NCBI GenBank assembly: GCA_964535565.1
Contig: CAZHUJ010000002.1
Span: 99,493 to 163,492, forward strand
DNA from: an uncultured Pseudohongiella sp.
Lineage (GTDB): Bacteria; Pseudomonadota; Gammaproteobacteria; Pseudomonadales; Pseudohongiellaceae
Direction: 5' to 3'
Length of the DNA stretch: 64,000 nt
Shown: one piece after another, positions 27,659 to 47,697 of the stretch
Numbering within the stretch: the first letter of the stretch is position 1
Layout of the letters: every line of letters starts with the position of its first letter
Notes under the pieces: generated by a model
What the model saw: the letters and a program-made list of their open reading frames with translations, nothing else
Told to the model about the DNA's origin: nothing
Database searches by the model: none
Translations under genes and position numbers: made by a program

Positions 27659-28617
27659 TGTTTGCAGGAGCTTTTAGTAGACGTTTAAACGTGGCCGCAG
27701 CGGCGGTACTGGGTTTGGGCCTGCTCTGCAGCGGAATGTCAGTGCAGGCGCAGACCTACAGCAGTGGTCAGCACATTGAGCCCGCGTACGAAGGCTGGCG
27801 TCAGAATGAAGATGGTTCCTACAACTTCATTTTTGGTTACCACAATGAAAACTGGCAGGAAGAACTCGATATCCCGGTGGGAGAAAATAATTTTTTCTCT
27901 CCTGGCGATGCCGATCGTGGCCAGCCCACACACTTTCTGCCGCGTCGTAACCGCTTCACCTTTGAAGTCACGGTCCCAGCCGATTGGGGCGAAAAAGAGT
28001 TGGCATGGACGATAACGGCTCACGGTGTCACACGCACCGCGTACGCTACTCTGGCCAAGGACTATGTGGTGGATAACGTGGTCATTGCCTCTGAAACCGG
28101 ATCGTTGGGGGCCGGTACCAGTACGCCTGAATCGCGTGCCAACACAGCGCCAGTGATCAACTTGCTGGGTGATAACGTGCGTAGTGTGCGTGTGGGTGAA
28201 CCGCTGCTGTTAAGAGCTGAAGTCAGGGACGACGGTCTGCCGAAACCGGGCAGTGCTGCAGCTGCGGCTGAAGGCCGCGAAGTGACGCGAACAGCTCCGG
28301 GTGAAGTGCGCCGATTTATGCGTGCACCCACACGGGTCACAGTAGGTAAAACCAACGGTTTGTTCCTGTCATGGAACGTTTACCGTGGTGACGCCAACGC
28401 GGAATTTTATCCGCCGCAGGTCAAACCATGGGAAGACACCCGTGCCAGCGCCAACTCACCTTGGGGTGCTTACTGGACACCTCCGCCCATTCCGGAAGAC
28501 GGAATCTACGAAACCCAGGTAACGTTTGATAGACCTGGCACGTTTATATTGTGGGCGCGAGCCGATGATGGGGGACTTTATGGTGACTATTACGTCACTG
28601 TAAATGTGACTGAGTAA
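27658..28617 (+). CDS. Hypothetical exported protein (319 aa), translationally coupled to the upstream gene
   Basis: Signal peptide AAAAVLGLGLLCSGMSVQA-QT. The ATG overlaps the upstream TGA by 1 nt. No family recognised. Confidence 0.6.
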   Translation: MFAGAFSRRLNVAAAAVLGLGLLCSGMSVQAQTYSSGQHIEPAYEGWRQNEDGSYNFIFGYHNENWQEELDIPVGENNFFSPGDADRGQPTHFLPRRNRFTFEVTVPADWGEKELAWTITAHGVTRTAYATLAKDYVVDNVVIASETGSLGAGTSTPESRANTAPVINLLGDNVRSVRVGEPLLLRAEVRDDGLPKPGSAAAAAEGREVTRTAPGEVRRFMRAPTRVTVGKTNGLFLSWNVYRGDANAEFYPPQVKPWEDTRASANSPWGAYWTPPPIPEDGIYETQVTFDRPGTFILWARADDGGLYGDYYVTVNVTE

Positions 28618-31080: not shown

Positions 31081-31186
31081 CGGCCAAGGCAGTTAATCTT
31101 CAGGACACGCCCGTAAATACGTCCCTGTAGGGCTCGTCGGCGGACTTCCTGTCCGCCGACGGTCCTTCAGATTTAACTCCCTTGGC
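31081..31186. repeat. Palindromic REP/MITE-like element, copy A (partial core)
   Basis: The outer imperfect inverted repeat GGCCAAGG...CCTTGGCC encloses GGACACGCCCGTAAATACGTCCCTGTAGGGCTCGTCGGCGGAC-ttcct-GTCCGCCGACGGTCC. The core is shared with the copies at 46348, 57232 and 57477. Confidence 0.6.
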
Positions 31187-31265: not shown

Positions 31266-32081
31266 TCAGTCTTTGACGAATTTCAGGGTCATGCGGTCAC
31301 TCTCACCAATCTCCATCAGCCTTGGTCGGTCAGCATCACTGACGCCACGCAATGTCGGCGGCAGGTTCCATACACCACCTGGATGATTTTTGGGGTCGCG
31401 TGGATTGGCGTTAATCTCTGAACTGCCGGCAAAGCTGAAGCCGTTGGCGGTCATCAGGTCGATCAGCGTTTTTTCGTGGATATAACCATTGCCCGGAACC
31501 GCAGCCTGATCCGCGGGCCAGCGGTGATCAACAATGCCTACAACACCGCCCGATTTCAGCGCGGCGTGCCAGGCCTTGACGATGTTATCGGCACCCATAG
31601 CCAGCCAGTTGTGGGCATTACGGAAGTCCAGGATTACGTCAACGCTGCCGGGTTCGGCGATGCGGGATTGCGCTTGTGTCAGTTGTTCTGACAGAACAAT
31701 GTCGCCGTACAGGGATGGGTTGCTGTTGACCAGAGCCATGAAGCTGTCATTGGAACCTTTCATCCAGCCTTGCAGCGGCGTGTCACTGCGGTCATACAGC
31801 GCGGCGATCAGAGTGCCATTTTCCTTCAGGTAGGGAGCCAGGATTTCGGTGTACCAGCCACCACCGGGCCAGGTCTCCACAACTACATCGTCCGCTTCTA
31901 CCCCAAAAAAGCTCAGTGTTTCATAAGGGTGACGGTAAACATCCCGCGCTGAATTGGCTTCAGAACGATGAGGGCTGTTAATTGCCGTTCGCAGTGCCGC
32001 GTTCTCCTGCGCTGCCAGTGGGCTGGCCATCAGCAGGCCCGCGATCAGCGTCAGAACAGAGGTTTTCACAAAAGGTTTCAT
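31266..32081 (-). CDS. Exported class I SAM-dependent methyltransferase-like protein (COG4798 type)
   Basis: The internal start MKPFVKTSVLTLIAGLLMASPLAA at 32081 follows GGAG. A methyltransferase-fold region GGWYTEILAPYL is present. The upstream 38 codons of the ORF-track call look non-coding. Confidence 0.65.
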   Translation of the reverse strand: MKPFVKTSVLTLIAGLLMASPLAAQENAALRTAINSPHRSEANSARDVYRHPYETLSFFGVEADDVVVETWPGGGWYTEILAPYLKENGTLIAALYDRSDTPLQGWMKGSNDSFMALVNSNPSLYGDIVLSEQLTQAQSRIAEPGSVDVILDFRNAHNWLAMGADNIVKAWHAALKSGGVVGIVDHRWPADQAAVPGNGYIHEKTLIDLMTANGFSFAGSSEINANPRDPKNHPGGVWNLPPTLRGVSDADRPRLMEIGESDRMTLKFVKD

Positions 32082-32258
32082 AAAGGACTCCGCCTGTTTT
32101 TTGTTGTTGGTATCAGATATTTCACGCTGCAAACAACCTGCGTCTGCGGCCGAGAATACCGGTTTGTCGAACAACAGACCAGTGAGCTGCGGCATTTCTC
32201 ACAAGCGCCACTCACGGTATGATGCGGTGAAATTCATGCGCTTATACAGGGACCCATC

Positions 32259-33113
32259 ATGAGTGCTTCTGATGCAGCAAGTGTAAATCCGTTGATCTCG
32301 GTTGATGAGTTACAACAGCGACTGTATTCGCAGGATCTGTTGCTGATAGACACCCGCTTTAAACTGGAAGATCCGGGCTACGGCCGCAGCGTCTACACAC
32401 AGTCGCATTTGCCGCTGGCGGTTTATCTGGATCTGGATGACGATTTGTCATCGGCAGTCATCCCGGGCGAGACCGGACGCCATCCGTTGCCGGATCCGGA
32501 TGTGCTGGAGGCGCGGCTGCGCCGTTTGGGATTACATGCCAAAGACCATGTGGTGATTTATGACGATGGCCCCGGCTTTTTTGCAGCACGGCTGTGGTGG
32601 CTGTTGCACTGGCTGGGCCATAAAAAAGTATCGGTGCTTGATGGTGGTCTGGCCGCCTGGACCAAGGCGGGTTTGCCTATGTCAGACCAGGTCAATTTCC
32701 GCCTCTGGCCAGGTACCTTTGTAGCCCATTTACAACCGGGTATGTTGGCAACTGCTCCCGAGCTGCTGGCAGGCAAGGATCTGCAGTTGCTGGACGCGCG
32801 TGCTCCGGAACGTTTCCGTGGTGAAATGGAGCCAATTGATCCGGTCGCAGGGCATATCCCCGGTGCCATATGCCTGCCTTGTGCCGCCAATCTTGGAAGT
32901 GACGGTCTATGGTTGTCTGCGGCACAGCTACGCGAACGTTTCCCTGCTCTGGCGCCAGGACATATCCGTGTCTGCTACTGCGGCTCCGGTGTCACAGCTT
33001 GCCATAACATCCTGGCGGCCGTGGTCGCTGGTTTGCCTATGCCCAGACTTTATGCAGGATCCTGGAGCGAGTGGATCACGGACCCCATGCGCCCTGTGGC
33101 CACAGGTGCTTGA
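32259..33113 (+). CDS. sseA: 3-mercaptopyruvate/thiosulfate sulfurtransferase (tandem rhodanese)
   Basis: Active-site loop YCGSGVTACH and two rhodanese halves; 284 aa. Confidence 0.8.
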   Translation: MSASDAASVNPLISVDELQQRLYSQDLLLIDTRFKLEDPGYGRSVYTQSHLPLAVYLDLDDDLSSAVIPGETGRHPLPDPDVLEARLRRLGLHAKDHVVIYDDGPGFFAARLWWLLHWLGHKKVSVLDGGLAAWTKAGLPMSDQVNFRLWPGTFVAHLQPGMLATAPELLAGKDLQLLDARAPERFRGEMEPIDPVAGHIPGAICLPCAANLGSDGLWLSAAQLRERFPALAPGHIRVCYCGSGVTACHNILAAVVAGLPMPRLYAGSWSEWITDPMRPVATGA

Positions 33114-34054
33114 TCAAGACTATAGAGCTGCTGATGCAGAGCCTTCATGGAATCTTTGACGTAGTCCATGAAGGCGCGCATTACCGGTGTCGGGTGCTTG
33201 CCGTTGGGATACACGATGCACCATGAACGCCGTAGTGGAAATCCTTCCAGGGCTGGTGCCACCAACTGACCGAGCCTGAGTTCTGCGCTGATGCTGAGTC
33301 TGGGCAACACTGCTCGTCCAAGGCCTGCCACCACCGCGTGTTTGATTGCTGCGTTTGAACCCAGCTCCAGTCGGGCCTTGAGCGTCAGCTGATGACGTGT
33401 ACACCAGTTTTCCAGTGCCTGACGGGTGCCTGAGCCGCGCTCGCGCAGTAACAGTCCATCTTCCAGAAACCGGCGTGTATTGATGTCACCCTGCTGCAGC
33501 AGCGGGTCATTGGCATTAACCACCGGCACCAGCAGATTGTCCAGAAACGGCAGGATATTCAGTGAGCGCGATTCCGGCACCATGCCCATGATGATGAGGT
33601 CGTCATGGTTCTCGGTCAGCCGTTGCAGGGCCTGGGCACGGCTGAACACCTGCATTTGTACCTGCACCTGTGGGAACAGCTGCAAAAAACCGCTGAGCAT
33701 ATAAGGCACAATAGTTTGTGCAGTGCTGACGGCTGACAGGCGAAGTTCGCCGCGAATCTGACCCTGCAGCGTTGCCAGATCCATCTGGAAACGTTCCAGG
33801 TCTTCAAAGATAGAGGCCACGTGGCGAGCAAGCTGTTCACCTGCCGCCGTCACATACAGTTTTTTGCCTACATACTCAAACAGTGGCAGGCCAATGACTT
33901 GCTCCAACTGACGGATCTGGGCGCTGACAGCCGGTTGTGTCAGCGCAAGTTCTTCCGCTGCACGGCTGTAACCCTGGCGCTGATAGACCGCATAAAACAC
34001 CTGCAGCTGGCGAAAAGACAAGCGGCTAAGCAATTGGGCGAGAGTGTAGGACAT
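33050..34054 (-). CDS. LysR-family transcriptional regulator, divergent from pycAB (PycR-like)
   Basis: N-terminal wHTH FRQLQVFYAVYQRQGYSRAAEELALTQPAVSAQIRQLE. Its divergent position beside the two-subunit pyruvate carboxylase matches P. aeruginosa pycR. Confidence 0.8.
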   Translation of the reverse strand: MSYTLAQLLSRLSFRQLQVFYAVYQRQGYSRAAEELALTQPAVSAQIRQLEQVIGLPLFEYVGKKLYVTAAGEQLARHVASIFEDLERFQMDLATLQGQIRGELRLSAVSTAQTIVPYMLSGFLQLFPQVQVQMQVFSRAQALQRLTENHDDLIIMGMVPESRSLNILPFLDNLLVPVVNANDPLLQQGDINTRRFLEDGLLLRERGSGTRQALENWCTRHQLTLKARLELGSNAAIKHAVVAGLGRAVLPRLSISAELRLGQLVAPALEGFPLRRSWCIVYPNGKHPTPVMRAFMDYVKDSMKALHQQLYSLDQAPVATGRMGSVIHSLQDPA

Positions 34055-34102
34055 CGTGATGGCGCCAATAATATATTGAAAAATAAGAAATCGTGAATGC
34101 CT

Positions 34103-34146
34103 ATAAGATAAACCTTATGGTAAACACAAGTAAAATCAATTTTTAC
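34103..34146. promoter_or_regulatory. Candidate LysR operator dyads in the pycR-pycA intergenic region
   Basis: ATAAG-N6-CTTAT (34103-34118) and GTAAAA-N5-TTTTAC (about 34130-34146) lie in an AT-rich divergent promoter region. Confidence 0.3.
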
Positions 34147-34210
34147 TTTGGGTTGAGTTGTAATAGTTTATGCGCCCGTTACAAATGCTCTCTCCGACGG
34201 AGAACCTTTG

Positions 34211-35626
34211 ATGTTAAAAAAGATACTGATCGCCAATCGCGGTGAAATCGCCGTGCGTATTGTGCGTGCCTGTGCCGAGATGAATATTCGTTCGGTGGCT
34301 ATTTACACCGAGCCGGATCGTCACGCGCTGCACGTCAAACGTGCCGACGAAGCCTATTCGGTAGGTTCTGATCCGCTGGCGGGTTATCTGGATGCGCGCC
34401 GTCTGGTCAACCTGGCCGTACAAACAGGTTGTGACGCCATTCATCCTGGTTACGGTTTTCTGTCCGAAAATGCCGAGTTCGCGCGCATCTGTGCTGAGCG
34501 TGGTATTCGTTTTATTGGCCCGGAAGCAGATGTGATTGCGCGTATGGGTGACAAAACCGCTGCCCGTGCCAGCATGATTGCGGCCGGTGTGCCCGTCACC
34601 CCGGGTTCTGAAGGCAATCTGGCGAACCTGGACGAAGCGTTGGAAGTGGCGGCGCGTATTGGTTATCCCGTCATGTTAAAAGCGACTTCCGGTGGTGGTG
34701 GTCGCGGCATTCGCCGTTGTGATTCGGCGGAGGAGCTGCGCGCCCAGTATCCGCGTGTGATTTCCGAAGCCACCAAGGCCTTTGGTTCTGCGGAAGTGTT
34801 CCTGGAAAAATGCATCGTAGATCCCAAACACATCGAAGTGCAGATTCTGGCCGACAGTCAGGGCAATGTGATCCATCTGTATGAGCGTGACTGTTCTATT
34901 CAGCGTCGTAACCAAAAACTGATAGAGATTGCACCCAGCCCGCAGCTGACGCCGGAGCAGCGTCAATATGTGGGTGAGCTGGCAGTACGCGCTGCAAAAG
35001 CGGTGAACTACGAAAACGCAGGTACTGTTGAATTCCTGGTGACGGGCAACGAAATTTATTTTATGGAGATGAACACCCGTGTGCAGGTTGAGCACACCAT
35101 CTCCGAGCAGATTACCGGTGTGGATATTGTGCGTGAGCAGATCTGTGTGGCTTCCGGTTTGCCGCTGAGCTACCGCCAGGAAGATATCAGTTACCGTGGT
35201 TTTGCTCTGCAATTCCGTATCAATGCCGAAGATCCCAAAAACAATTTTCTGCCCAGTTTTGGCCGTATTACGCGTTATTACGCACCGGGTGGTCCCGGTG
35301 TGCGCACCGATACCGCAATTTACACCGGTTACACCATTCCGCCGTATTACGACTCCATGTGTCTGAAGCTGGTGGTGTGGGCACTGACCTGGGAAGAGGC
35401 TTTAAACCGTGGTGCACGTGCGCTGTCCGATATGCGTGTGCAGGGCGTTAAAACCACAGCGCGTTATTATCAGGAAATCCTGCAGGATCCGGATTTCCGC
35501 AGTGGTGAGTTCAACACCAGCTTTGTGCCGAATCATCCACAACTGCTGAATTATTCTGAAAAACGCAATCCCGCTGAACTGGCGCTGGCTATAGCAGCTG
35601 CTTTGGCAGCCCATGCCGGTGTATGA
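34211..35626 (+). CDS. pycA: Biotin carboxylase subunit (pyruvate carboxylase subunit A type)
   Basis: MLKKILIANRGEIAVRIVRA, ATP-grasp motifs (MLKATSGGGGRGI, EMNTRVQVEH), and a location next to a carboxyltransferase/BCCP subunit. Confidence 0.85.
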   Translation: MLKKILIANRGEIAVRIVRACAEMNIRSVAIYTEPDRHALHVKRADEAYSVGSDPLAGYLDARRLVNLAVQTGCDAIHPGYGFLSENAEFARICAERGIRFIGPEADVIARMGDKTAARASMIAAGVPVTPGSEGNLANLDEALEVAARIGYPVMLKATSGGGGRGIRRCDSAEELRAQYPRVISEATKAFGSAEVFLEKCIVDPKHIEVQILADSQGNVIHLYERDCSIQRRNQKLIEIAPSPQLTPEQRQYVGELAVRAAKAVNYENAGTVEFLVTGNEIYFMEMNTRVQVEHTISEQITGVDIVREQICVASGLPLSYRQEDISYRGFALQFRINAEDPKNNFLPSFGRITRYYAPGGPGVRTDTAIYTGYTIPPYYDSMCLKLVVWALTWEEALNRGARALSDMRVQGVKTTARYYQEILQDPDFRSGEFNTSFVPNHPQLLNYSEKRNPAELALAIAAALAAHAGV

Positions 35627-35653
35627 CCGGACGCGAATAGAGGACCCTATTAA

Positions 35654-37450
35654 ATGAGCAAAATTCTCGTTACCGATGTCATCCTGCGTGACGCCCACCA
35701 GTCGCTGATTGCTACGCGTATGCGCACCGAAGATATGCTGCCGATCTGTGACAAACTCGACAAAGTCGGGTACTGGTCACTGGAAGTGTGGGGCGGCGCA
35801 ACGTTTGATGCCTGTGTACGTTTCCTGAAAGAAGATCCGTGGGAACGTCTGCGCCAGTTGCGCAAGGCGCTGCCTAACACCCGTCTGCAGATGTTGCTGC
35901 GTGGTCAGAATCTGCTGGGTTACCGCCACTATGCGGATGATGTGGTTGAAGCCTTTGTTGCCAAAGCCGCTGAAAACGGCATTGATGTGTTCCGTGTATT
36001 TGATGCGCTGAACGATCTGCGCAACCTGGAAACTGCAATCCGTGCCGTCAAAAAAGCCGGCAAACATGCACAAGGCACTATTTGCTACACCACCAGCCCG
36101 GTACACACTTCCGAGCTGTTTGTTCAGCAGGCTCTGGCGCTGCGTGATATGGGCAGTGACTCCATTGCCATCAAAGACATGGCTGGTTTGCTGACACCTT
36201 ATGCTGCTTACGATCTGGTTAAAGCGATTAAAGAACACGTGGATCTGCCGCTGTTTATTCACAGCCACGCGACAGCAGGTATGGCAGATCAGTGCCAGCT
36301 CAAAGCCATTGAAGCCGGCGCTGAGCATATTGATACCGCGATTTCCTCATTTGCATGGGGCACCAGCCACCCGGCAACCGAGTCGATGGTTGCTGCGCTG
36401 CGCGGCACAAAATGGGACACCGGACTGGATCTGGAATTGCTGACGGAAATTGCGGATTACTTCCGTGATATCCGCAAAAAATATCATCAGTTTGAAAGTG
36501 AATTTGCACGCGAGGACATCTCCGTACAAATCAACCAGGTGCCGGGCGGCATGATGTCTAACCTGGCGAATCAGCTGAAAGAACAAAATGCACTGGGCCG
36601 TATCCGTGAAGTGTTTGCGGAGATCCCACGTGTTCGTAAAGATCTGGGTTACCCACCGCTGGTAACACCGACTTCACAAATTGTGGGCACACAAGCGGTG
36701 TTGAACGTATTGACTGGTGAGCGTTACAAGTCCATTACCAACGAAGTAAAACGTTATCTGCAAGGTGGTTATGGCCAGCCGCCAGCGCCGGTGGATGAAA
36801 CTGTACGCACCAAAGCGATTGGTCAGGAAGATGTGATCGAAGGTCGCCCGGCAGATCTGATCAGTGCAGAAATGCTCAAGCTGCGTAAAGACATTGGTGA
36901 GCTGGCGAAGAGCGAAGAAGATGTGCTGACGTTTGCGATGTTCCCGGACATTGGTCGTCAGTTCCTCGAACAGCGCGCAGCGGGCACGCTGGAGCCGGAA
37001 GCCCTGTTGCCGGTAGCTAAAACCGGGCGTGCAGTGGAGGAGGGTGTTGCCACCGAGTTTATTATCGATGTACACGGTGAAACCTATCAGGTTGCAATTA
37101 CCGGTGTGGGTTCTCACGAAGAAGGCAAACGTCGTATTTACCTGACACTGGACGGCATGCCGGAAGAAGTGCTGTTTGAGCCGAAAAACGCTTACGTTGG
37201 CGGCAACAGCAGCGCGGGTCGTCAACGTGCCAGCAAACCTGGTCATGTAACAACGGGGATGCCAGGCAATATTGTTGAAGTATTAGTCAGCGTTGGTGAT
37301 GCCGTCAGGGCCGGCCAGTCTGTGCTGATCACTGAAGCGATGAAAATGGAAACAGAAATCCATGCCGTCATCGCTGGCACTGTCAAAGGTGTACACGTTA
37401 GCAAAGGTGATCGTGTAACTCCGGGTGAAGTGCTGATCGAGATCGAGTGA
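35654..37450 (+). CDS. pycB: Pyruvate carboxylase subunit B / oxaloacetate decarboxylase alpha-type carboxyltransferase with a C-terminal biotinyl domain
   Basis: N-terminal TDVILRDAHQSL (HMGL-like carboxyltransferase) and the C-terminal biotin attachment motif EAMKMETE. Confidence 0.85.
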   Translation: MSKILVTDVILRDAHQSLIATRMRTEDMLPICDKLDKVGYWSLEVWGGATFDACVRFLKEDPWERLRQLRKALPNTRLQMLLRGQNLLGYRHYADDVVEAFVAKAAENGIDVFRVFDALNDLRNLETAIRAVKKAGKHAQGTICYTTSPVHTSELFVQQALALRDMGSDSIAIKDMAGLLTPYAAYDLVKAIKEHVDLPLFIHSHATAGMADQCQLKAIEAGAEHIDTAISSFAWGTSHPATESMVAALRGTKWDTGLDLELLTEIADYFRDIRKKYHQFESEFAREDISVQINQVPGGMMSNLANQLKEQNALGRIREVFAEIPRVRKDLGYPPLVTPTSQIVGTQAVLNVLTGERYKSITNEVKRYLQGGYGQPPAPVDETVRTKAIGQEDVIEGRPADLISAEMLKLRKDIGELAKSEEDVLTFAMFPDIGRQFLEQRAAGTLEPEALLPVAKTGRAVEEGVATEFIIDVHGETYQVAITGVGSHEEGKRRIYLTLDGMPEEVLFEPKNAYVGGNSSAGRQRASKPGHVTTGMPGNIVEVLVSVGDAVRAGQSVLITEAMKMETEIHAVIAGTVKGVHVSKGDRVTPGEVLIEIE

Positions 37451-37470
37451 CAAACCCGGCTCAGCCTGAA

Positions 37471-37497
37471 CTGTACGCATGACTTTCATGCGTACAG
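37471..37497. other. Perfect 12 bp palindrome between pycB and the malic enzyme gene (attenuator, terminator or operator)
   Basis: CTGTACGCATGA-ctt-TCATGCGTACAG, with no U-tract following. Confidence 0.4.
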
Positions 37498-37575
37498 AGC
37501 TGCCCCTCGTTGCTCACAACAGGTTCTGCCGCTACTCTGTGGCCATTGACTCCACCTGTTTTGCTCGAGAGCTCC

Positions 37576-39276
37576 ATGACTACACAAAAACCGCTTTATA
37601 TCGCCTACGCCGGCCCAACTCTGTTGGAAACACCCTTGCTGAACAAAGGCGGGGCCTTTACCGAGCTGGAGCGGCGCACGTTTAATCTGTTAGGCCTGCT
37701 GCCACCGCGTCACGAAACCATCGAGGGGCAGGTCGAGCGAGCATACCGGCAGTACTGCAGCTTTGAAGAACCCATCAACAAACACATCTACCTGCGTGCA
37801 GTGCAGGACACCAACGAGACGCTGTTTTACCGACTGATCAGCGAGCATCTGGTGGAGATGCTGCCCATTATTTATACGCCGACGGTGGGTGATGCCTGTG
37901 AGCATTTCTCTGACATCTACCGCAGGGCGCGAGGACTTTTTGTGTCGTACGAGGAACGTGAGTTCATGGCCGACATCATGCAAAGTGTGACCAAGGAAAA
38001 GGTCAAAGTGATTGTGGTCACCGATGGTGAGCGTGTGTTGGGCCTTGGAGATCAGGGCATTGGTGGCATGGGGATTACCATCGGCAAGTTGTCACTGTAC
38101 ACCGTTTGCGGAGGTATCAGCCCGGCTTATACCTTGCCGGTGGCTCTGGATGTAGGCACCAATAACCAGACTTTGCTGGATGATCCGATGTACATGGGAG
38201 TGCGCCATCCGCGTGTTACCGGTGAGGAGTACACCGCCTTTGTTGACAGTTTTATTGATGCCGCGCAGGAGCGCTGGCCCGGTGTGCTGATTCAGTTCGA
38301 GGATTTTGCACAGCCCAATGCCATGCCCATCCTGCAACGTCATCGTGATCGCGTGTGCTGTTTTAATGATGATATTCAGGGTACAGCAGCTGTGACACTG
38401 GGCACCTTGCTGGCGGCCTGTCGCAAAAAAGGCGAGAAACTCAGCGCACAACGCATTGTGTTTGTTGGCGCCGGTTCAGCCGGTTGTGGGATTGCTGAAC
38501 TGATCATCAGCGCGATGATCGCAGAAGGCTTGACCGATGCGCAGGCGCGCTCTCAGATTTTTATGGTGGATCGCTACGGCTTGCTGACCGAAGGCATGGA
38601 AAATCTCATGGATTTTCAGGAGCGCTTGTTGCAACCCAAAGTGGCAATCCAAAGCTGGCCGCTGGAGTCCGACAGCGAATACCCAGGCTTGTATGATGTG
38701 ATCAACAACGTGGGAGCCAGTGTGCTTATTGGTGTGTCGGGCAAGCCGGGGCTGTTCACGGAACGTGTGGTGCGTCGTATGCACACTTTGTGTGAACGTC
38801 CGATTATTCTGCCGCTGAGCAATCCCTCGCGCCACGTGGAAGCGCATCCGGCACAGGTGATGGAATGGACGGCAGGGCAGGCGATTGTGGCGACCGGCAG
38901 CCCGTTTGGCCAGGTGGATTACAACGGCCAGCGTTTCACCATTGCCCAGTGCAATAACAGCTATATTTTCCCCGGCATCGGACTTGGTGTGATTGCCTGT
39001 AAGTCCTCCCGTGTCACCGACGAAATGCTGATGACGGCCAGCATGACCTTGTCCGCATCTGCCCCGGATGTGGATGACCCGAAAGCGTCGATTCTGCCAC
39101 CACTGACCGATCTGCCGCAGATCAGCCGCAAGATCGCCTTTGCGGTGGCAAAAATGGCGATGAGTCAGGGCCACGCGCGTGAGATTCCGGATGATGAATT
39201 GCTGGAAATCATCGAGCACAATTTCTGGACACCGGCTTATCGTGAATACCGGCGTATTGCAGCGCGGGCCAGATAA
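37576..39276 (+). CDS. maeA: NAD-dependent malic enzyme
   Basis: Start at [28 protein letters not shown] (typical SfcA N-terminus). Also carries [14 protein letters not shown] and the NAD motif [11 protein letters not shown]. Confidence 0.9.
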
Positions 39277-39330
39277 CACATGTTGCAGGGCGCCCGGCCA
39301 TTGGTCCATTACCAGAATTTATCAGGACGC

Positions 39331-40251
39331 TTACAGAGTCACCGTGTTCTGTTGTAACAGGCTCAGCAGCGCCTCCGGTACATATTTGCGTGCTATCGAA
39401 ATTGCATAAAAGTTTTCGTACGCTTGCGGCAACATCTGGTACTGGGCCAGTACGCCCTGATCAATTTCATCTTTGACCACCACCGGTGGCAACACGGCCA
39501 ATGAGCCACTGTCGCGCGCCAGCAGGCGCAGCATCGCCATGTCGTCGGCTTCGGCGCGTACCACCGGCTGGTATTGCCAGGTCGCACACAAAGACTCGAA
39601 CGCTGAGCGTATGGCACTGCCGCGACCGGGCAAAACCCAGGTGGCTTTGTTGTATCCGTGTGGAAAAGGACCTGTGGGCACCTGACCGCCGGGGCCGACA
39701 ATGGCCAGTTGCTGACGAGCGACCAGTTGGCTCTGCCACGATGGACCCGTGCCAAGACTGCTTTCCGCCAGTGGACTGCCACTGCCATCACTGACCACCG
39801 CGCGGTTGGTCAGAGCCAGATCCAGCTCATGACGGCTCAACCCTTCCAGCAAGCGGTTCATGTCACCGGTGACCAGCGACAGGCTGACTTGCTCGTTGGC
39901 CAGCAGCGGCTGGATAAAACGCTCGGTAAAGTTACGTGACAGATTGGTGAGTACACCAATGGCCAGTTGTTGTGTGTGCTGGCTGGCGCCACGCAGCAAA
40001 ATGGATTCCAGTTCCTCGCCGGTGCGAAAAATGTCCTGTGCGTAGCGCAGCACCTGACGGCCCGTATCGGTCAGCACGAGGCGCCTACCGCTTCGGGTGA
40101 ACAGTTCCACGCCCATGGTGTGCTCAAACTGTCGAATCTGCGCGGACAGTGCTGATTGCGACACATGCAGCGCCTCAGCGGCCTGGGTCAGGTGGCCCAG
40201 CGTTGCCACTTTCCAGAAGTAGTACAGATGGTGGTAATTCAGGCGGCTCAT
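39331..40251 (-). CDS. LysR-family transcriptional regulator, divergent from dabBA
   Basis: N-terminal wHTH YHHLYYFWKVATLGHLTQAAEALHVSQSALSAQIRQFE (NhaR/LysR-like). Confidence 0.85.
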   Translation of the reverse strand: MSRLNYHHLYYFWKVATLGHLTQAAEALHVSQSALSAQIRQFEHTMGVELFTRSGRRLVLTDTGRQVLRYAQDIFRTGEELESILLRGASQHTQQLAIGVLTNLSRNFTERFIQPLLANEQVSLSLVTGDMNRLLEGLSRHELDLALTNRAVVSDGSGSPLAESSLGTGPSWQSQLVARQQLAIVGPGGQVPTGPFPHGYNKATWVLPGRGSAIRSAFESLCATWQYQPVVRAEADDMAMLRLLARDSGSLAVLPPVVVKDEIDQGVLAQYQMLPQAYENFYAISIARKYVPEALLSLLQQNTVTL

Positions 40252-40272
40252 CTACGCATCACCTTGTGTGAA

Positions 40273-40310
40273 TTAAAATAGAACGATTACAGATAATATA
40301 TCTATTTTAA
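40273..40310. promoter_or_regulatory. Inverted repeat in the LysR-dabB divergent promoter (candidate operator)
   Basis: TTAAAATAGA (40273-40282), then N18, then TCTATTTTAA (40301-40310), in a very AT-rich 145 bp intergenic region. Confidence 0.35.
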
Positions 40311-40396
40311 TTAATTAAATAGCTCTGTCAGACTGCGCGCCAGTCAAGGACCTGGGTGGAAGCAGGTCTGGATACGCCCCATGACGGAGAAAAATT

Positions 40397-42076
40397 GTGC
40401 TGCAGATCTGGTTGTTGTCGCTTGTACCACTGAGTATCCCCGGACTTCTTGCTCTCAGTGCCTTGTGTCTGAATCGCCGAAGCAGTGCCCGCCCTGACTC
40501 TCATACCCTCGGCATTATTCGTCTGACCACCGTGTTCAGCGCACTGGCCAGCGCTGCGGTCGTCCTCTGGTTGTTGCTGTGTGCGACCGGATTGAGCCAG
40601 CAATCGCCCGGCCAGTTGATTACCTTGACGCCTCTGCGCGCGGTGATGCTGGCGCTGGTGTTGGGTCTGGCCGCGGTTCTGCTGCAGTTTTCGCGCAACT
40701 ACATGGCCGGTGAGAGCTGTTACAACGGATATTTTCGCTGGTTGCTGATGACGGTTGCTGCAGTCTGTCTGACTGTGATCGCCAACCATCTGGTGTTGTT
40801 TGTGCTCGGCTGGGCCTCAGTCAGTGTGAGTTTGCACCAGTTGCTGACGTTGTATCCGGAGCGTCCGCGCGCAGTGCTGGCCGCGCACAAAAAATTTATT
40901 CTGGCGCGCATCGCCGAGCTTTGTGTACTGGGTGCCGCCTTGTTGTTGTCGATGTCGCACAACAGCTTTTACATCGATCAGATTCTGCAGGCGGTCGCGG
41001 CAGCGCCTGCGTTGACCCTCAATGAACACCTCGCTGCCTGGTTGCTGGGCATGGCGGCGCTGATCAAATGCGCGCAACTGCCGCTGCACGGCTGGTTGAT
41101 TAAAGTGGTGGAAGTACCGACACCGATCAGCGCACTGCTGCATGCCGGTGTGATTAATCTCGGCGGCTTTATGTTGCTGGTGTTTGCACCGCTGTTTGCC
41201 CGCTCCGAGCTGGCACAGTGGTGGGTGCTGCTGGTCGCCGGGGTCAGCACCGTACTCTCCGTGCTCATCATGACGACGCGCATCAGCGTAAAAGTCAGGC
41301 TGGCCTGGTCAACCTCGGCGCAGATGGGGTTGATGTTGATGGAGATCGCGCTGGGCTTGTACGAACTGGCGCTGTTACATCTGCTGGCGCACTCGCTGTA
41401 CAAGGCACACGCCTTCCTGAGTGCGGGTAACGCGGTCAATCAGCATCTGGAACAAACGCTGTTGCCAGCGGCATCGTCCACCAGCGCGAGCAATCGGGCG
41501 GTGGCCGGTATCGTGACTGTGTTTGGTGTGCTCTGTATCGTGCTCTGTGTCGTGCTCTTTGTAATAGCAGCGATGTGGCTCACCGGTTCCGAGGGTCCAC
41601 TCAGTCCCTGGTCGCTGTTGAGCATTGGTCTGCTCAGTTTTGCGCTGCGTTCAACAACATCCACAACAACAGCGACATCCGCCGCACAAGCCCTGTGTTA
41701 TGTGATTCCACTGATGTTGTTGCTGACAATCGCCTACGTGCTGCTCAAACACCTGCTGATGCAATTGCCGGAGTTTGCCGCGCTTCGTGGCGTCAGTGCT
41801 TTGCACGCACCAATGTCCGCCGCTGATCTGGTCAGCATGCTGCTGTTTGCTTTGATCCCGCTGACCGCCTGGCTCCTGCATTACAAGGCATTGCATCCTC
41901 GGGTACAGCGTTTGTCAGCATTGTTGTTCGCCGGATTTTATCTGGATGAATGGTTTACCCGCATGACGCTGTGGTTGTGGCCTGCTTCATTGCCGCGCAC
42001 ACAGGACACCCGACCCGCGTTTAGAAGCCGACGTTCCGTCAAATCGCTGTTGTCCACTCAGGAGTCTTCCCGATGA
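40397..42076 (+). CDS. dabB: DabB: NuoL/MrpA-like proton-conducting membrane subunit of a DAB inorganic carbon pump
   Basis: 559 aa, roughly 12-14 hydrophobic helices and a Proton_antipo_M-like core (LIKCAQLPLHGWL, SALLHAGVINLGGF). GTG start after GGAG. Its stop overlaps the dabA start. Confidence 0.8.
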   Translation: MLQIWLLSLVPLSIPGLLALSALCLNRRSSARPDSHTLGIIRLTTVFSALASAAVVLWLLLCATGLSQQSPGQLITLTPLRAVMLALVLGLAAVLLQFSRNYMAGESCYNGYFRWLLMTVAAVCLTVIANHLVLFVLGWASVSVSLHQLLTLYPERPRAVLAAHKKFILARIAELCVLGAALLLSMSHNSFYIDQILQAVAAAPALTLNEHLAAWLLGMAALIKCAQLPLHGWLIKVVEVPTPISALLHAGVINLGGFMLLVFAPLFARSELAQWWVLLVAGVSTVLSVLIMTTRISVKVRLAWSTSAQMGLMLMEIALGLYELALLHLLAHSLYKAHAFLSAGNAVNQHLEQTLLPAASSTSASNRAVAGIVTVFGVLCIVLCVVLFVIAAMWLTGSEGPLSPWSLLSIGLLSFALRSTTSTTTATSAAQALCYVIPLMLLLTIAYVLLKHLLMQLPEFAALRGVSALHAPMSAADLVSMLLFALIPLTAWLLHYKALHPRVQRLSALLFAGFYLDEWFTRMTLWLWPASLPRTQDTRPAFRSRRSVKSLLSTQESSR

Positions 42077-44583
42077 TGATTGTTATTGCCAGTTCCCACG
42101 ACACTGTTCACAACACTGGCCAAAATGCCGGGCTCGAACTGACCGCCGCGCAACACGAGCTGATCTCGCAGGCTGCGGGATGGATCGCGCCGGTGTGGCC
42201 ACTGGACCAAACCATCGCCGTCAACCCGTACTGGCAACTGAGACACTTGCCCCGTCGACAGGTGGCCGCGCGTATGGCGGCGCTGGCAGGCAGTCCGAGC
42301 CTGATGGAGCCCGCGTGGTACCGCGAGGCCTGGCAACAGGGACGGATACAACCCGAAGACTTGCTGCGCGCAGCCAGTACCGCAACCAATCCTCCCGAGC
42401 AACCGGTCAGCGTGGACAGTTTGTTGAGTGCGCTGAACAAGACCTCGTCCGCGCCGGTGTGGCGCAAACTGTCGGATCTGCTGGATACCCGTCGCAGCCC
42501 GCGGCAGATGTCCTGGCAGGAGGAAATCCTGTACCAGATCAGCCAGTTTTGCGCAGCGCATTGCCAACAACAAAAACCATTGCTGGCACGCGCAGTCACG
42601 GCTGTGTCGCAACAAACACAGTCCGATTTGTATACGCACTGGCTGCAAAACATTCAACGCGATCGTGGCATCAGTGTGTTGATGTCGGCGCCGTCGCTGA
42701 CTCATCAGTTTTATGCGTTGCCTGCCTCGCGCGATGCACTGCTGGCCACGGCAATCAGTGAACTGGAACTGGAAGATGAACAGCTGGCGCTTTATTGCCA
42801 CGCCTTGTTGCTGGATGTGAACGGCTGGGCTTCGCATCTGGCCTGGCGCGCCTGGCACCAACAAGGTGAACACAAGCTGGATGAACTCAAGGATTTGCTG
42901 GCAATCCGGATGGCCTGGGAGCTGGTGTTATGGCGAGATCAACTCGGTCACAGCGATGGCAATGACTCCGGGGGACAAGACTGCTGGTTGCAAAATGCAT
43001 GGCGGCTGGAAAAAAACGCACTCAATACCCTGATAAACCAACACGAGCAGGCGCAACAACCGCTGTGGATCTGGGCCCGTGCGCTTGAATTGTCTGAGCA
43101 GCGGGATTTGCGTCATCGTTTGCGACAGGGCCTGACATCTGTCGGCGATAACACAGAGTCTGGCTGCGCGGAATCCGCGGCCGCTTTGCAGGCCATATTC
43201 TGCATTGATGTGCGCTCGGAACCCATGCGTCGAGCGTTGGAGAGCCAGGGCGCCCACATTCAGACGGCCGGATTTGCCGGATTTTTTGGCTTGCCTATTG
43301 CGTGCAAACCCGACGGCACCGAGCTATGCCGTCCGCAGTTACCCGGATTGCTGGCACCGCAACTGACCGCAACACCGGTCGCCAGTGATCAGGCACTGCT
43401 ACGGCATCAGCAGCACGCGCGTTGGCAGGGCTGGAGCGAATCGGCACCCGGGACCTTTGCCATGGTGGAAAGCGCAGGCGTCAGTTATCTGTTCAATTTG
43501 CTCAGGCAGAGTTTTAAACCCGCGGCCCAGGAAAACCCGGTCAGCGCACTGACGCATCAGACACAATGGCAATTGCAGCGCGATGGAAGCGTGCTGGACG
43601 CGCAGGCGCTGGCGGCGCTGGTCAAGCCGGTGCTCGGCGCCATCGGCATCACCGACTGGGCGCCCACGGTGTTGCTGGTTGGCCATGGCAGCCACAGCGC
43701 CAATAACCTGCAAGCGGCAGGTCTGGATTGTGGCGCCTGTGGCGGGCAAACCGGTGAAGTTAATGTGCGAGTGCTGGCGCAAGTGCTCAATAACCCGGAG
43801 GTCAGAATCGCACTGGCAAACGCGGGCACCGTTATCCCGACACAAACAAAGTTTGTAGCAGCCTTGCATAACACCACCACGGATCACATCGACTGTTTTG
43901 ATCCGCAGGCTGCCGCATCACTGAAAACCCTGTTGTCGGCCGCTACAGCGCTGGCGCAAAAACAGCGCGCCAGACAGTTTGCAGAACTCGATGGCCTGTT
44001 GTCAGCCACACAACTGGACAAGGCATTTTTGCATCGCAGCAACGACTGGTCACAGCCCAGACCCGAATGGGGACTGGCCAATAATAAAGCGTTTGTCATG
44101 GCACCTCGTGCGTGGACACGGTCAACCGATCTGCAGGGCAGGGTGTTTTTGCATGATTACCAATGGCAGGCTGATGCCGCGAACAACTATGGTGTACTCG
44201 AACTGCTGATGACGGCGCCGATGATTGTCACGCACTGGATTAACATGCAGTACAACGCCTCCATGACGGACAACCACAAGTTCGGCAGCGGCAACAAACT
44301 GCTGCATAACGCTGTGGGTGGCAACCTCGGTGTGTTTGAAGGTAATGCCGGTGATCTGCGAATTGGACTGGCACGTCAGTCGCTGCACGATGGTGAGCGC
44401 TGGATGCACACACCGGTGCGACTGGCGGTGTACATTGCAGCTCCGGTGGAAGCGATTGCCGCGATTGTTGCCCGTCATCCGATGTTGCAGGATCTGGTCA
44501 ACAACGACTGGATTGAACTGTACCAGTGGCAGGCTGAAGAGGGTTTTGCGCGCTTGTATCAGGGCCGTTTGATTGTCTATTGA
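42073..44583 (+). CDS. dabA: DabA: DUF2309/UPF0753 (YbcC) beta-carbonic-anhydrase-like subunit of a DAB inorganic carbon pump
   Basis: 836 aa with FCIDVRSEP (Cys377-x-Asp379, nt 43201-43209) and GHGSHS...LDCGACGG (His541, Cys553, Cys556). It is coupled to a NuoL-like gene by an ATGA overlap at 42073-42076. Confidence 0.85.
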   Translation: MMIVIASSHDTVHNTGQNAGLELTAAQHELISQAAGWIAPVWPLDQTIAVNPYWQLRHLPRRQVAARMAALAGSPSLMEPAWYREAWQQGRIQPEDLLRAASTATNPPEQPVSVDSLLSALNKTSSAPVWRKLSDLLDTRRSPRQMSWQEEILYQISQFCAAHCQQQKPLLARAVTAVSQQTQSDLYTHWLQNIQRDRGISVLMSAPSLTHQFYALPASRDALLATAISELELEDEQLALYCHALLLDVNGWASHLAWRAWHQQGEHKLDELKDLLAIRMAWELVLWRDQLGHSDGNDSGGQDCWLQNAWRLEKNALNTLINQHEQAQQPLWIWARALELSEQRDLRHRLRQGLTSVGDNTESGCAESAAALQAIFCIDVRSEPMRRALESQGAHIQTAGFAGFFGLPIACKPDGTELCRPQLPGLLAPQLTATPVASDQALLRHQQHARWQGWSESAPGTFAMVESAGVSYLFNLLRQSFKPAAQENPVSALTHQTQWQLQRDGSVLDAQALAALVKPVLGAIGITDWAPTVLLVGHGSHSANNLQAAGLDCGACGGQTGEVNVRVLAQVLNNPEVRIALANAGTVIPTQTKFVAALHNTTTDHIDCFDPQAAASLKTLLSAATALAQKQRARQFAELDGLLSATQLDKAFLHRSNDWSQPRPEWGLANNKAFVMAPRAWTRSTDLQGRVFLHDYQWQADAANNYGVLELLMTAPMIVTHWINMQYNASMTDNHKFGSGNKLLHNAVGGNLGVFEGNAGDLRIGLARQSLHDGERWMHTPVRLAVYIAAPVEAIAAIVARHPMLQDLVNNDWIELYQWQAEEGFARLYQGRLIVY

Positions 44584-44643
44584 GCCCGGATAAGCCAGAA
44601 TACGCGCCCTTTTAACGAGTTCGCTGCTGACAATACCTACCTC

Positions 44644-46230
44644 ATGTCCAATTTTGCTCTTGAACAGGAAATCGCAACCCGGCGCACCTTTGCGATTATC
44701 TCGCACCCCGACGCCGGTAAAACCACTATCACCGAAAAATTGCTGTTGTTCGGCCGCCTGATTCAGAAGGCCGGCACCGTCAAAGGCAAAAAGAGTGATC
44801 GTCATGCCACCTCGGACTGGATGGCGATGGAGCAGCAGCGAGGCATTTCCGTGACCTCATCGGTAATGCAGTTTCCCTATGCCGATGCCATTGTGAACCT
44901 GCTGGACACCCCCGGTCACGAAGACTTCTCCGAGGATACCTACCGCGTACTGACCGCCGTGGACTCCGCGCTGATGGTGGTTGATGGCGCCAAGGGTGTT
45001 GAGGAGCGCACCATCAAACTGATGGAAGTGTGTCGTCTGCGTGATACCCCGATTTTCACTTTTGTGAACAAACTCGACAGGGACACGCGTGAGCCGATTG
45101 AAGTGCTCGACGAAATTGAAACCGTACTAAACATCCGCTGCGCGCCCATTTACTGGCCGCTGGGTAACGGCAAACAGTTTAAGGGTATTTATAACCTGTA
45201 CACCGATACCATCCATGTTTATCACCATGGCCAGGGTGATCGTATTCCAGATGATGTGCGTGTGCAGGGGTTGCGAAGCGCGGAAGCCAAGGCCTTGCTC
45301 GGCGCTTATGCCGACGATTTTGCTGACGAAATTGATCTGGTGCGTGGTGCCAGTAACGAATTCGATGTGGAAGAGTACCTGGCAGGTCGCATGACACCGG
45401 TATTTTTTGGCACCGCACTCGGCAACTTTGGTGTGCGCGAAATGCTCGACGATTTTGTGAAGTGGGCACCGCCGCCGCGTGCACGCGCCACCGAAACCCG
45501 GCTGGTGGCACCGACGGAAGAAGCCTTCAGCGCGTTTGTGTTCAAAATTCAGGCCAATATGGACCCCAATCACCGCGACCGCGTGGCATTTTTGCGTATC
45601 TGCTCAGGCGCGTATGAAAAAGGCAAAAAGCTGCAGCATTGCCGTTTAGGCAAGGAAGTGCGTATCAGTGATGCGGTCACTTTCCTGGCCGGAGACCGCG
45701 AGCAGGCAGAGTATGCGGTCTCCGGAGACATTATAGGCTTTCATAACCACGGCACTATCCAGATCGGTGATACGTTCTCGGAGGGTGAACTGCTCAAATT
45801 CACCGGAATCCCGCACTTTGCGCCTGAGCTGTTCCGTCGCATCCGTTTAAAAGACCCTCTGAAAACAAAACAGCTGCAGAAAGGTTTGAAGCAGTTGGCA
45901 GAGGAGGGGTCGGTGCAGGTATTTATGCCGATGCGCAACAATGACCTGATTGTTGGCGCGGTGGGTGTGCTGCAGTTTGAAGTGGTGGCGTACCGCCTGC
46001 TGGATGAGTACAAAGTGGATTGCATTTACGAGCCGGTAAACGTCTACAGCGCGCGCTGGATTGAGTGCTCGGATGCGAAGAAGCTGGAAGAGTTCAAGAA
46101 AAAGGCGTACGACAACCTGGCGGTAGATGGCGGTGATCATTTGACGTATCTGCCGCCGACGCGGGTGAATTTGTCGTTGATGCAGGAGCGTTGGCCTGAA
46201 GTCACGTTCCATGCAACGCGTGAGCACTAA
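44644..46230 (+). CDS. prfC: Peptide chain release factor 3
   Basis: GTPase motifs [20 protein letters not shown] and NKLD; 528 aa. Confidence 0.95.
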
Positions 46231-46347
46231 GTGGTATTGATTTCGCGCCGGTGCCATATCTGATGCACAGCTTTTGGCGTCAGCAGCGGTGCGCTGGCAG
46301 TGGCTGGTACCAGGATTTTTGTGGCGGGTGGCACAATCAGTGGATGA

Positions 46348-46464
46348 GCGGAGTGGGGGTGGTACAGGGCTGAAGGACCGTCGGCGCCCATGGATGGGCG
46401 ACGCCGAGCCCTCCAGGGATGGATTTACGGGCGTGTCCTGAAGCCTGTACCACCCCCGCTCCGC
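46348..46464 (+). repeat. Palindromic REP/MITE-like element, copy B (full length)
   Basis: An outer ~30 bp inverted repeat (GCGGAGTGGGGGTGGTACAGGGCTGAAGGAC / GTCCTGAAGCCTGTACCACCCCCGCTCCGC) encloses the core CGTCGGCGCCCATGGATGGGCGACGCCGAGCCCTCCAGGGATGGATTTACGGGCGTGTCC. Confidence 0.65.
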
Positions 46465-46476
46465 GGTGACCACTGA

Positions 46477-47697
<1,221 letters not shown>

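Follow-up and report, generated by a model that had tools for sequence, protein, structure and literature searches.

What does an inorganic-carbon pump do in a bacterium whose surrounding genes are those of a heterotroph, and to which signal does it answer? The question is raised by a 64 kb stretch of DNA from an uncultured Pseudohongiella sp. (Pseudomonadales, Gammaproteobacteria). This whole stretch is called the window below, and all coordinates are positions in it. The window contains a dabB gene followed by a dabA gene, and a gene for a LysR-type transcriptional regulator (LTTR) lies upstream of the pair in the opposite direction. As judged from sequence comparison, this module very probably encodes an energy-coupled inorganic-carbon uptake complex of the DAB2 type (DAB, "DABs accumulate bicarbonate") together with a dedicated LysR regulator, in a heterotrophic gammaproteobacterium. 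The locus is an ordinary DAB: its family, mechanism, occurrence in heterotrophs, gene order and LysR neighbour have already been published. As a pump, therefore, it adds nothing new, and the residual question is the signal sensed by the LysR partner.

The dabB-dabA operon and its products

The three genes and the short signals that join them are listed here.

39331-40251, minus strand: lysR (provisional name DabR), 306 amino acids (aa), divergent from dabB
40386-40389, plus strand: GGAG on the 5' side of the dabB GTG
40397-42076, plus strand: dabB, GTG start, 559 aa, NuoL-like, predicted proton-conducting membrane subunit
42073-42076, plus strand: ATGA overlap of dabB and dabA
42073-44583, plus strand: dabA, 836 aa, predicted cytoplasmic subunit resembling beta-carbonic anhydrase

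The coordinates given for the three genes in the initial annotation were reproduced from the list of open reading frames (ORFs) and their translations. Products of 306, 559 and 836 aa were called identically by independent gene callers, in JGI data and on Logan metagenome contigs with the same locus. The overlap reported between dabB and dabA was confirmed by direct reading of the sequence: the ATG of dabA occupies 42073-42075 and the TGA of dabB 42074-42076. The junction is GGAGTCTTCCCGATGATGATT, and a GGAG lies 8 nucleotides (nt) upstream of dabA. This overlap of start and stop couples the two genes translationally. Gene calls in two related loci (L086 and L087) show this 4-nt overlap as well, and a 2-nt gap is found in a third (L085). 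As to horizontal transfer, the GC content of dabBA (58%; 65-70% at third codon positions) is near the values of the neighbouring genes, and no mobile-element genes flank the locus. In a protein search, the best match of DabA was at 79% and none was at 100%, though the identical 836-aa gene is present on the JGI and Logan contigs, which were reached by way of the LysR protein; the missing match seems to reflect an incomplete search index and to have no biological meaning.

Both family assignments passed the profile searches that had been suggested for them. DabA matched PF10070 with an E value of 5.3e-221 and 736.5 bits over the complete profile (1-747 of 747), and DabB matched PF00361 with an E value of 3e-35. 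In the Protein Data Bank (PDB), the sole match of DabA was DabA2 of Halothiobacillus neapolitanus (9rd0_A, E=3.6e-145, residues 29-817, 39% identity). The best match of DabB was DabB2 of the same complex (9rd0_B, E=9.5e-62, 212.7 bits, residues 9-535). According to the hydropathy profiles, DabA is essentially soluble, and DabB has about 13-14 hydrophobic membrane segments. Together with the operon coupling and the conserved residues described below, these matches support the earlier identification of the pair as a DabB-DabA inorganic-carbon pump.

A different origin of dabB might be considered, namely as a stray NuoL/MrpA subunit that belongs to complex I or to an Mrp antiporter. The PF00361 domain is common to NuoL, NuoM, NuoN and MrpA/D, and the NCBIfam model NF006029, which DabB matches with 472.7 bits (cutoff 380), is named "NADH-quinone oxidoreductase subunit L". 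However, DabB is far below the cutoffs of the genuine NuoL, MrpA and NdhF models, and its score with DabB2 is about twice that with any NuoL/ND5 (212 vs ≤113 bits; the best NuoL/ND5 in the PDB gave 112.8 bits, about 1e-31). Furthermore, no other nuo or mrp genes are located nearby, and dabB is translationally coupled to dabA. The stray-subunit explanation is thus improbable in the extreme.

The residues compared here are those named for the H. neapolitanus proteins in the cryo-electron microscopy (cryo-EM) and mutagenesis paper on DAB2 (bioRxiv 10.64898/2026.03.13.711513). They were mapped onto the window proteins through the printed alignments, with the H. neapolitanus residue given first in each pair.

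DabA, zinc ligands: C351 to C377, H524 to H538, C539 to C553
DabA, Asp-Arg dyad: D353 to D379, R355 to R381
DabA, proton relay: S356 to S382, H585 to H599, D590 to D604
DabA, tunnel gates, first group: F375 to F401, A376 to A402, F378 to F404, A703 to A715, P704 to P716
DabA, tunnel gates, second group: H684 to H694, V696 to V708, I700 to L712
DabA, tunnel gates, third group: R653 to R663, W656 to W666, L629 to L639
DabA, Leu in place of the canonical Gln/His: L658 to L668
DabA, Glu of the membrane "finger": E444 to E466
DabB, Lys of the ion pair: K235 to K224
DabB, acidic partner: D185 to E174 (conservative change)
DabB, Arg: R182 to R171
DabB, non-acidic position: I151 to A140
DabB, His/Lys/Glu chain (window numbering): H231, H249, K299, E316, H328, H332, K336 and H338, each identical to DabB2

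In DabA, 21 of the 22 mapped positions (the 21 named functional residues and C542) are identical to those of DabA2, the exception being the conservative replacement of the tunnel gate I700 by L712. The mapped positions are invariant in a family alignment of 26 sequences. With the Glu that replaces D185 in DabB, the named residues show two conservative changes in all.

This mapping also bears on the metal ligands. The initial annotation had taken a carbonic-anhydrase-like ligand set, C377, D379, H541 and C556, from three sequence strings. All three strings are present (FCIDVRSE at 376-383, GHGSHS at 537-542 and LDCGACGG at 551-558), and the four residues exist. C377 and D379 were correctly assigned, but H541 and C556 are each 3 residues downstream of the true homologues, H538 and C553. 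Since the H. neapolitanus sequence reads GH(524)GSSTT...LDC(539)GAC, the ligands are the His of GHG (H538) and the first Cys of LDCGAC (C553). H541, which varies within the family, corresponds to a Ser in H. neapolitanus. Invariance does hold for C556, the counterpart of C542 of H. neapolitanus, but this residue is not a zinc ligand in the structure. Because of this shift in register, the H541 mutant that had been proposed would probe the wrong residue. The corrected set (C377, H538, C553, D379 and R381, with E466) averts misdirected mutagenesis.

The complex known as DAB2 (DabA2-DabB2, Hneap_0211/0212 of H. neapolitanus; PDB entries 9rd0, 9rd8 and 9rd9) consists of two subunits and has no DabC, as is the case here. 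The subunit sizes are also close, with DabA and DabB of 836 and 559 aa in the window and of 827 and 551 aa in H. neapolitanus. The zinc site, the Asp-Arg dyad, the finger Glu, the Leu at 668, the Lys/acidic ion pair of DabB and the non-acidic character of the I151 position are common to both. The differences are the overall identity of DabA noted above, with a poorly conserved N-terminal domain, the Glu and Ala that replace D185 and I151 of DabB, and the Leu at the I700 gate.

DAB1 (DabA-DabB-DabC, from H. neapolitanus and Thermocrinis albus) has the same core subunits and the same proposed mechanism, a proton-gated vectorial carbonic anhydrase. Unlike the window complex, DAB1 is heterotrimeric and includes a small DabC, which is essential. 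Its DabA is also larger (1046 aa in H. neapolitanus), and its genes lie in carboxysome-associated operons. Assignment of the window locus to this subtype was rejected. No ORF for a third subunit fits into the 4-nt overlap between dabB and dabA or the 60 nt between dabA and prfC, DabA has 836 aa, and carboxysome genes are absent from the window. With no third gene and a DabA of DabA2 size, the locus is therefore DAB2-like.

From the homology to H. neapolitanus DAB2, the following mechanism can be proposed. DabB would conduct protons down the proton-motive force. DabA would be placed on the cytoplasmic face of DabB, and its amphipathic helix-loop-helix "finger" would insert E466 into the proton path. 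The beta-carbonic-anhydrase-like zinc site, formed by C377, H538 and C553 with the D379-R381 dyad, would be deeply buried in DabA. Passage of protons would gate the one-way hydration of CO2 that has diffused into the cell, and the resulting HCO3- would be trapped in the cytoplasm. Rescue of a carbonic-anhydrase-free Escherichia coli by DAB2 was reported in the founding paper on these complexes.

One point weighs against a uniform mechanism of this kind. MpsAB of Staphylococcus aureus has been read as a Na+/HCO3- symporter, so that members of the family may differ in their coupling ion and in whether they take up CO2 or HCO3-. The window complex might likewise be a Na+-coupled bicarbonate symporter by which a marine host with a steep sodium gradient imports HCO3- directly. 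The relatives of the host are indeed marine, and the nearest curated family of the regulator is the Na+-responsive NhaR, though below the cutoff. Nevertheless, the buried zinc site, the CO2 tunnel and the residues of the proton path are conserved as in DAB2, which neither needed nor transported Na+ in the reported tests. In addition, a pure symporter would leave no obvious role for the conserved catalytic site. We regard symport as distinctly unlikely, and proton-gated hydration of CO2 seems to be the better description.

The direction of energy flow has also been viewed the other way round. Before the function was known, it was proposed that DabAB conserves energy, an exergonic reaction of the DUF2309 protein driving ion export through the NuoL-like subunit (PMC5700660); the name "Mps" itself refers to a contribution to membrane potential. 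Later genetics, uptake assays with carbonyl cyanide m-chlorophenylhydrazone (CCCP) and two cryo-EM structures instead support accumulation of inorganic carbon at the expense of the proton-motive force. The window proteins share the residues identified in that work. Operation in reverse is highly improbable, and uptake driven by the proton-motive force is retained as the proposed function.

The divergent LysR regulator and its operator

The regulator contains the two domains of a LysR protein, PF00126 (HTH_1, E=1.2e-21) and PF03466 (LysR_substrate, E=1.1e-14). In the PDB it gave generic LTTR matches. The best of them, 5y2v (E=1e-12), extends mostly over the DNA-binding half. It is a cyanobacterial protein annotated as "Rubisco operon transcriptional regulator", and this match carries no information on the effector of the window protein.

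The linkage of the regulator to dabBA was surveyed in 80 genomic loci, the closest among 579 confirmed relatives. A full-length LysR ortholog (41-94% identity) is divergent from dabB in 61 of the 70 loci with enough upstream DNA, although this frequency holds for the clade of the 80 closest loci and not for all DABs, which limits the wider reading of the linkage. In the remaining informative loci, LysR is upstream on the same strand (3/70) or lacking (6/70). The loci that bear it are from Gamma- and Betaproteobacteria, Myxococcota, Planctomycetota, Gemmatimonadota, Trueperaceae and Actinomycetota. In the reverse direction, all three sampled LysR homologues (56-61% identity) adjoin genes with PF00361 and PF10070. 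The same arrangement had been described as COGNAT "clade A" (Klimchuk et al. 2017, PMC5700660), in which a nuoL-like gene is followed by ybcC (COG3002) and a reversed LysR gene (COG0583) is present at the 5' end; the window locus has this arrangement. The 2017 work appeared before the function was assigned, put forward an energy-generating role and contains no description of an operator. The dedicated divergent LysR that the initial annotation had singled out is thus present, but it is not unusual.

The nearest genome locus (L001) is from a Pseudohongiella sp. metagenome-assembled genome, in which DabA and DabB are both 79% identical to the window proteins in amino acid sequence, LysR 94% and PrfC 96%. 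Over the aligned region (39333-46226 of the window, 5260-15552 of L001), conservation is accordingly uneven, being high in lysR and prfC and lower in dabB and dabA.

The name of the regulator requires comment. NhaR, the Na+-responsive LysR activator of nhaA in E. coli, belongs to the same family, and the NhaR equivalog NF008284 is the top NCBIfam match of the window protein. The score is 113 bits against a cutoff of 219, nhaA is not adjacent, and the gene is flanked by that for the malic enzyme and by dabB; identity with NhaR was therefore rejected. Many homologues carry the JGI label "transcriptional activator of nhaA" (P0123, P0125, P0133 and others). Because there is no nhaA nearby and the linkage to dabBA is tight, the label on these DAB-linked proteins is almost certainly a systematic mis-annotation. 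The DAB-linked LysR proteins form a widespread, uncharacterised family, and the pipeline name misleads readers of genomes.

A weaker form of this relationship concerns the regulatory part only: the regulator might still be an NhaR-like sensor of Na+ or pH, and the module might answer salt or alkaline stress. The top NCBIfam match and the JGI labels are in keeping with this, and the speciation of bicarbonate and CO2 depends on pH. On the other side stand the low score and the missing nhaA, the linkage to dabBA in both directions of the survey, and the best PDB match, 5y2v, which is a cyanobacterial inorganic-carbon regulator, albeit matched weakly and mostly in the DNA-binding half. Such a sensor is unlikely.

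The effector domain gives a further indication. In 64 orthologs, S105-R106-N107, H141, D144, R215, E234, D237, R242, R246-D247 and the motif VVVxDE are invariant. As far as sequence can tell, this invariance argues for a conserved ligand of the LysR protein. We tentatively suggest that the dedicated role of DabR in non-autotrophs may be to sense inorganic-carbon status and to switch on dabBA through the motif described below; it would then be a heterotroph counterpart of cyanobacterial CcmR/CmpR. In this case S105-R106-N107, R215, R242 and R246 might bind bicarbonate or a metabolite that reports a shortage of carboxylation. In the literature searched, no experimental work on this regulator was found, and a DAB-specific LysR was touched on only by the 2017 COGNAT paper and by unlinked LysR matches in a screen of H. 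neapolitanus.

The space between lysR and dabB has 145 nt and a GC content of 41%, compared with 55% for the window. The features located in it are as follows.

40264-40317, plus strand: conserved LTTR-binding block (predicted operator), top-ranking site of the weight matrix described below
40271-40312, no strand: AT-rich inverted repeat, arms 40271-40289 and 40294-40312, 19 nt each, 84% complementary, 4 nt apart
40280-40284: AGAAC half-site within the operator block
40301-40309: TCTATTTTA, within the operator block
40301-40312: TCTATTTTAATT element, within the operator block
40304-40331, minus strand: candidate lysR promoter, CTGACA, 16 nt, TAAAAT, overlapping the operator
40306-40334, plus strand: predicted dabB promoter, -35-like TTTAAT (40306-40311), 17-nt spacer, weak -10-like CAGACT (40329-40334)

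The AT-rich palindrome that had been put forward as an operator candidate (40273-40310) is real and lies inside a phylogenetically conserved regulatory block. The perfect core of the inverted repeat is AATTAAAATAGA / TCTATTTTAATT. The motif was derived from related loci, whose lysR-dabB intergenic regions were aligned with one element as the anchor. In the aligned architecture, the start codon of lysR is followed by GTTCT-N7-AGAACGA, a dyad of the T-N11-A type, and about 20 nt further on by AAT.TATTTTAC(A)GAAC. The consensus across phyla is GTTCT-N7-AGAACGA...AAT.TATTTTACAGAAC. In the relatives, the TTTACA of AAT.TATTTTAC(A)GAAC reads as a -35 hexamer, and a -10-like hexamer (cAtcAT/gATACT) is found 17 nt on. 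The dabB promoter predicted in the window occupies the position of this conserved TTTACA-N17-cAtcAT/gATACT.

A position weight matrix (PWM) of 54 columns was built from 44 other genomes, with the window and L001 excluded, and both strands of the 64 kb were scanned. The first rank was taken by 40264-40317 on the plus strand with 34.2 bits. The second, with 18.8 bits, was this site read on the reverse strand, a reflection of the dyad, and the next unrelated site had 9.9 bits. In addition, 58 of 60 positions in 40291-40350 are identical to L001, whereas identity falls to about 55% in the preceding 40 nt. LysR and operator are kept together across Gamma- and Betaproteobacteria, Myxococcota, Planctomycetota, Gemmatimonadota, Deinococcota and Actinomycetota. 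The binding block reported here is absent from the 2017 COGNAT paper and was not found in the other literature searched.

Several points count against this reading of the regulatory region. The anchoring of the alignment inflates conservation in the anchored columns, although this bias does not touch the flanking half-sites or the PWM test. The left half-site of the GTTCT-N7-AGAAC dyad is degenerate in the window (GTGAA), and therefore the binding geometry may differ from that in most relatives. The -10-like CAGACT of dabB is poor and was missed by a consensus promoter scan.

The arrangement of promoters and operator nevertheless suggests how the pair might be controlled. The regulator has an HTH_1 and a LysR_substrate domain, its presumed target is divergent, and a conserved dyad of the T-N11-A type is present in the shared intergenic region. 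The regulator site extends over the predicted -35 of dabB, an arrangement known from activator-dependent LTTR promoters. The candidate lysR promoter, which matches the sigma-70 consensus at 10 of 12 positions, is the only such match in 40100-44800, where shuffled sequences give an expectation of 1.7, so that the match is weak when taken alone. Its overlap with the operator fits autoregulation of lysR. This layout would be that of a classical divergent pair, LTTR-activated and autoregulated. LysR would bind the AT-rich block at 40264-40317, overlapping both the -35 of the weak dabB promoter and the lysR promoter, and from there probably activates dabBA and regulates its own gene. The conserved operator provides a handle on how heterotrophs sense and answer limitation of CO2 or bicarbonate.

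No Rfam match at E≤0.1 was obtained in 39000-47000, and a terminator was not found in the 60-nt gap between dabA and prfC.

The locus among DABs of autotrophs and heterotrophs

Apart from the LysR partner, the initial annotation had regarded two features of the locus as outstanding, namely the order dabB-dabA and the absence of RuBisCO and carboxysome genes nearby. The first is not distinctive: in 78 of the 80 loci dabB directly precedes dabA on the same strand, and in the remaining two a contig end interrupts the locus. The second is correct for the window. Pfam domains of RuBisCO, carboxysome proteins, phosphoribulokinase and carbonic anhydrase were found in none of the 49 ORFs scanned, three ORFs of 110-115 aa being left out of the scan. 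The absence is not unusual either, since DABs of heterotrophs are well documented; DabA homologues in pathogens and in genomes that lack RuBisCO had been noted in the founding paper. All three features are thus the normal state of the clade.

The gene content of the window is that of a heterotroph and includes aconitase, fumarase, aldehyde dehydrogenase, peptide ABC transport, pyruvate carboxylase and NAD-malic enzyme; prfC, tgt, yajC and secDF are further genes. DAB2 of H. neapolitanus is part of the CO2-concentrating mechanism of an autotroph, whereas in the window the complex belongs to a heterotroph. The window complex has a dedicated divergent LysR. An autotrophic CO2-concentrating mechanism finds no support within the window, where the 49 scanned ORFs include no genes for RuBisCO, carboxysome shell, carboxysomal carbonic anhydrase or phosphoribulokinase. 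Because RuBisCO and carboxysome genes are lacking in these 64 kb, the bicarbonate formed by the complex would most likely feed biotin-dependent and other HCO3--requiring carboxylases.

This use would be similar to that in two Firmicutes. The mpsAB genes of S. aureus and ndhF-ybcC of Bacillus subtilis are heterotroph homologues of DAB, in which the NuoL-like gene comes first, as here, and both systems supply bicarbonate for carboxylations. S. aureus requires MpsAB to grow at atmospheric CO2. B. subtilis has three carbonic anhydrases with which mpsB is redundant, and a requirement for added CO2 appears only in the quadruple mutant. Unlike the window, the Firmicutes loci have no LysR partner: a carbonic anhydrase gene is located downstream in B. 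subtilis (NdhF-YbcC(MpsB)-CanC), and an unrelated mpsC is present in S. aureus. In a 2026 study of B. subtilis, regulation of the homologous operon was called unexplored.

Neighbouring genes and other features of the window

Directly upstream of the DAB module, a C3/C4 anaplerotic cluster extends over 33050-39276.

33050-34054, minus strand: second LysR gene, divergent from pycA
34208-35626: pycA (biotin carboxylase)
35654-37450: pycB/oadA, forming with pycA a two-subunit pyruvate carboxylase about 3 kb upstream of the DAB genes
37510-39276: NAD-malic enzyme

Pyruvate carboxylase consumes bicarbonate. The adjacency of these genes to the DAB genes is kept in metagenome contigs of the same species. 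What speaks against a functional link is that the neighbourhood is absent in L001, where the flanking genes are those for an ABC transporter, phosphoadenosine phosphosulfate (PAPS) reductase, PhoD and HlyIII, and that an OadA/PycB homologue occurs in only one of the 80 loci (L080). A link of DAB to pycA-pycB and the malic enzyme is suggestive, but because of its absence in L001 the adjacency was treated as lineage-specific or coincidental and was not counted as evidence. On the other side of the module, L001 carries a 3.4 kb insertion between dabA and prfC, with the PAPS reductase, PhoD and HlyIII genes, which is not in the window.

A hairpin-forming intergenic element of about 90 nt is located at 31090-31180, and a partial inverted copy of it at 46370-46443, between prfC and tgt. 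The element matches the prfC-tgt spacer of L001 (93% over 73 nt) and looks like a repeat of the repetitive extragenic palindrome (REP) or miniature inverted-repeat transposable element (MITE) kind. ARAGORN found no tRNA at this element, and none in the whole window. Two regions (26093-28617 and 31266-32195) contain three sizeable ORFs of 521, 319 and 309 aa without a Pfam match at E≤1e-5; the 521- and 319-aa ORFs are adjacent, and the stop of one and the start of the other share one base.

The tgt gene (queuine tRNA-ribosyltransferase, 46570-47697) is about 9 kb from a gene at 56613-58193, in whose product PF12038, the N-terminal domain of tRNA-queuosine alpha-mannosyltransferase (E=8e-58), is fused to a glycosyltransferase domain. 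This product may be a bacterial queuosine-glycosylating enzyme. Finally, the 445-aa product of 7340-8677 matches PF08014 (MATCAP, the microtubule-associated tyrosine carboxypeptidase family) with an E value of 1e-127, and its gene is followed by a Peptidase_M48 gene. The family takes its name from a eukaryotic enzyme, and this member of it is bacterial.

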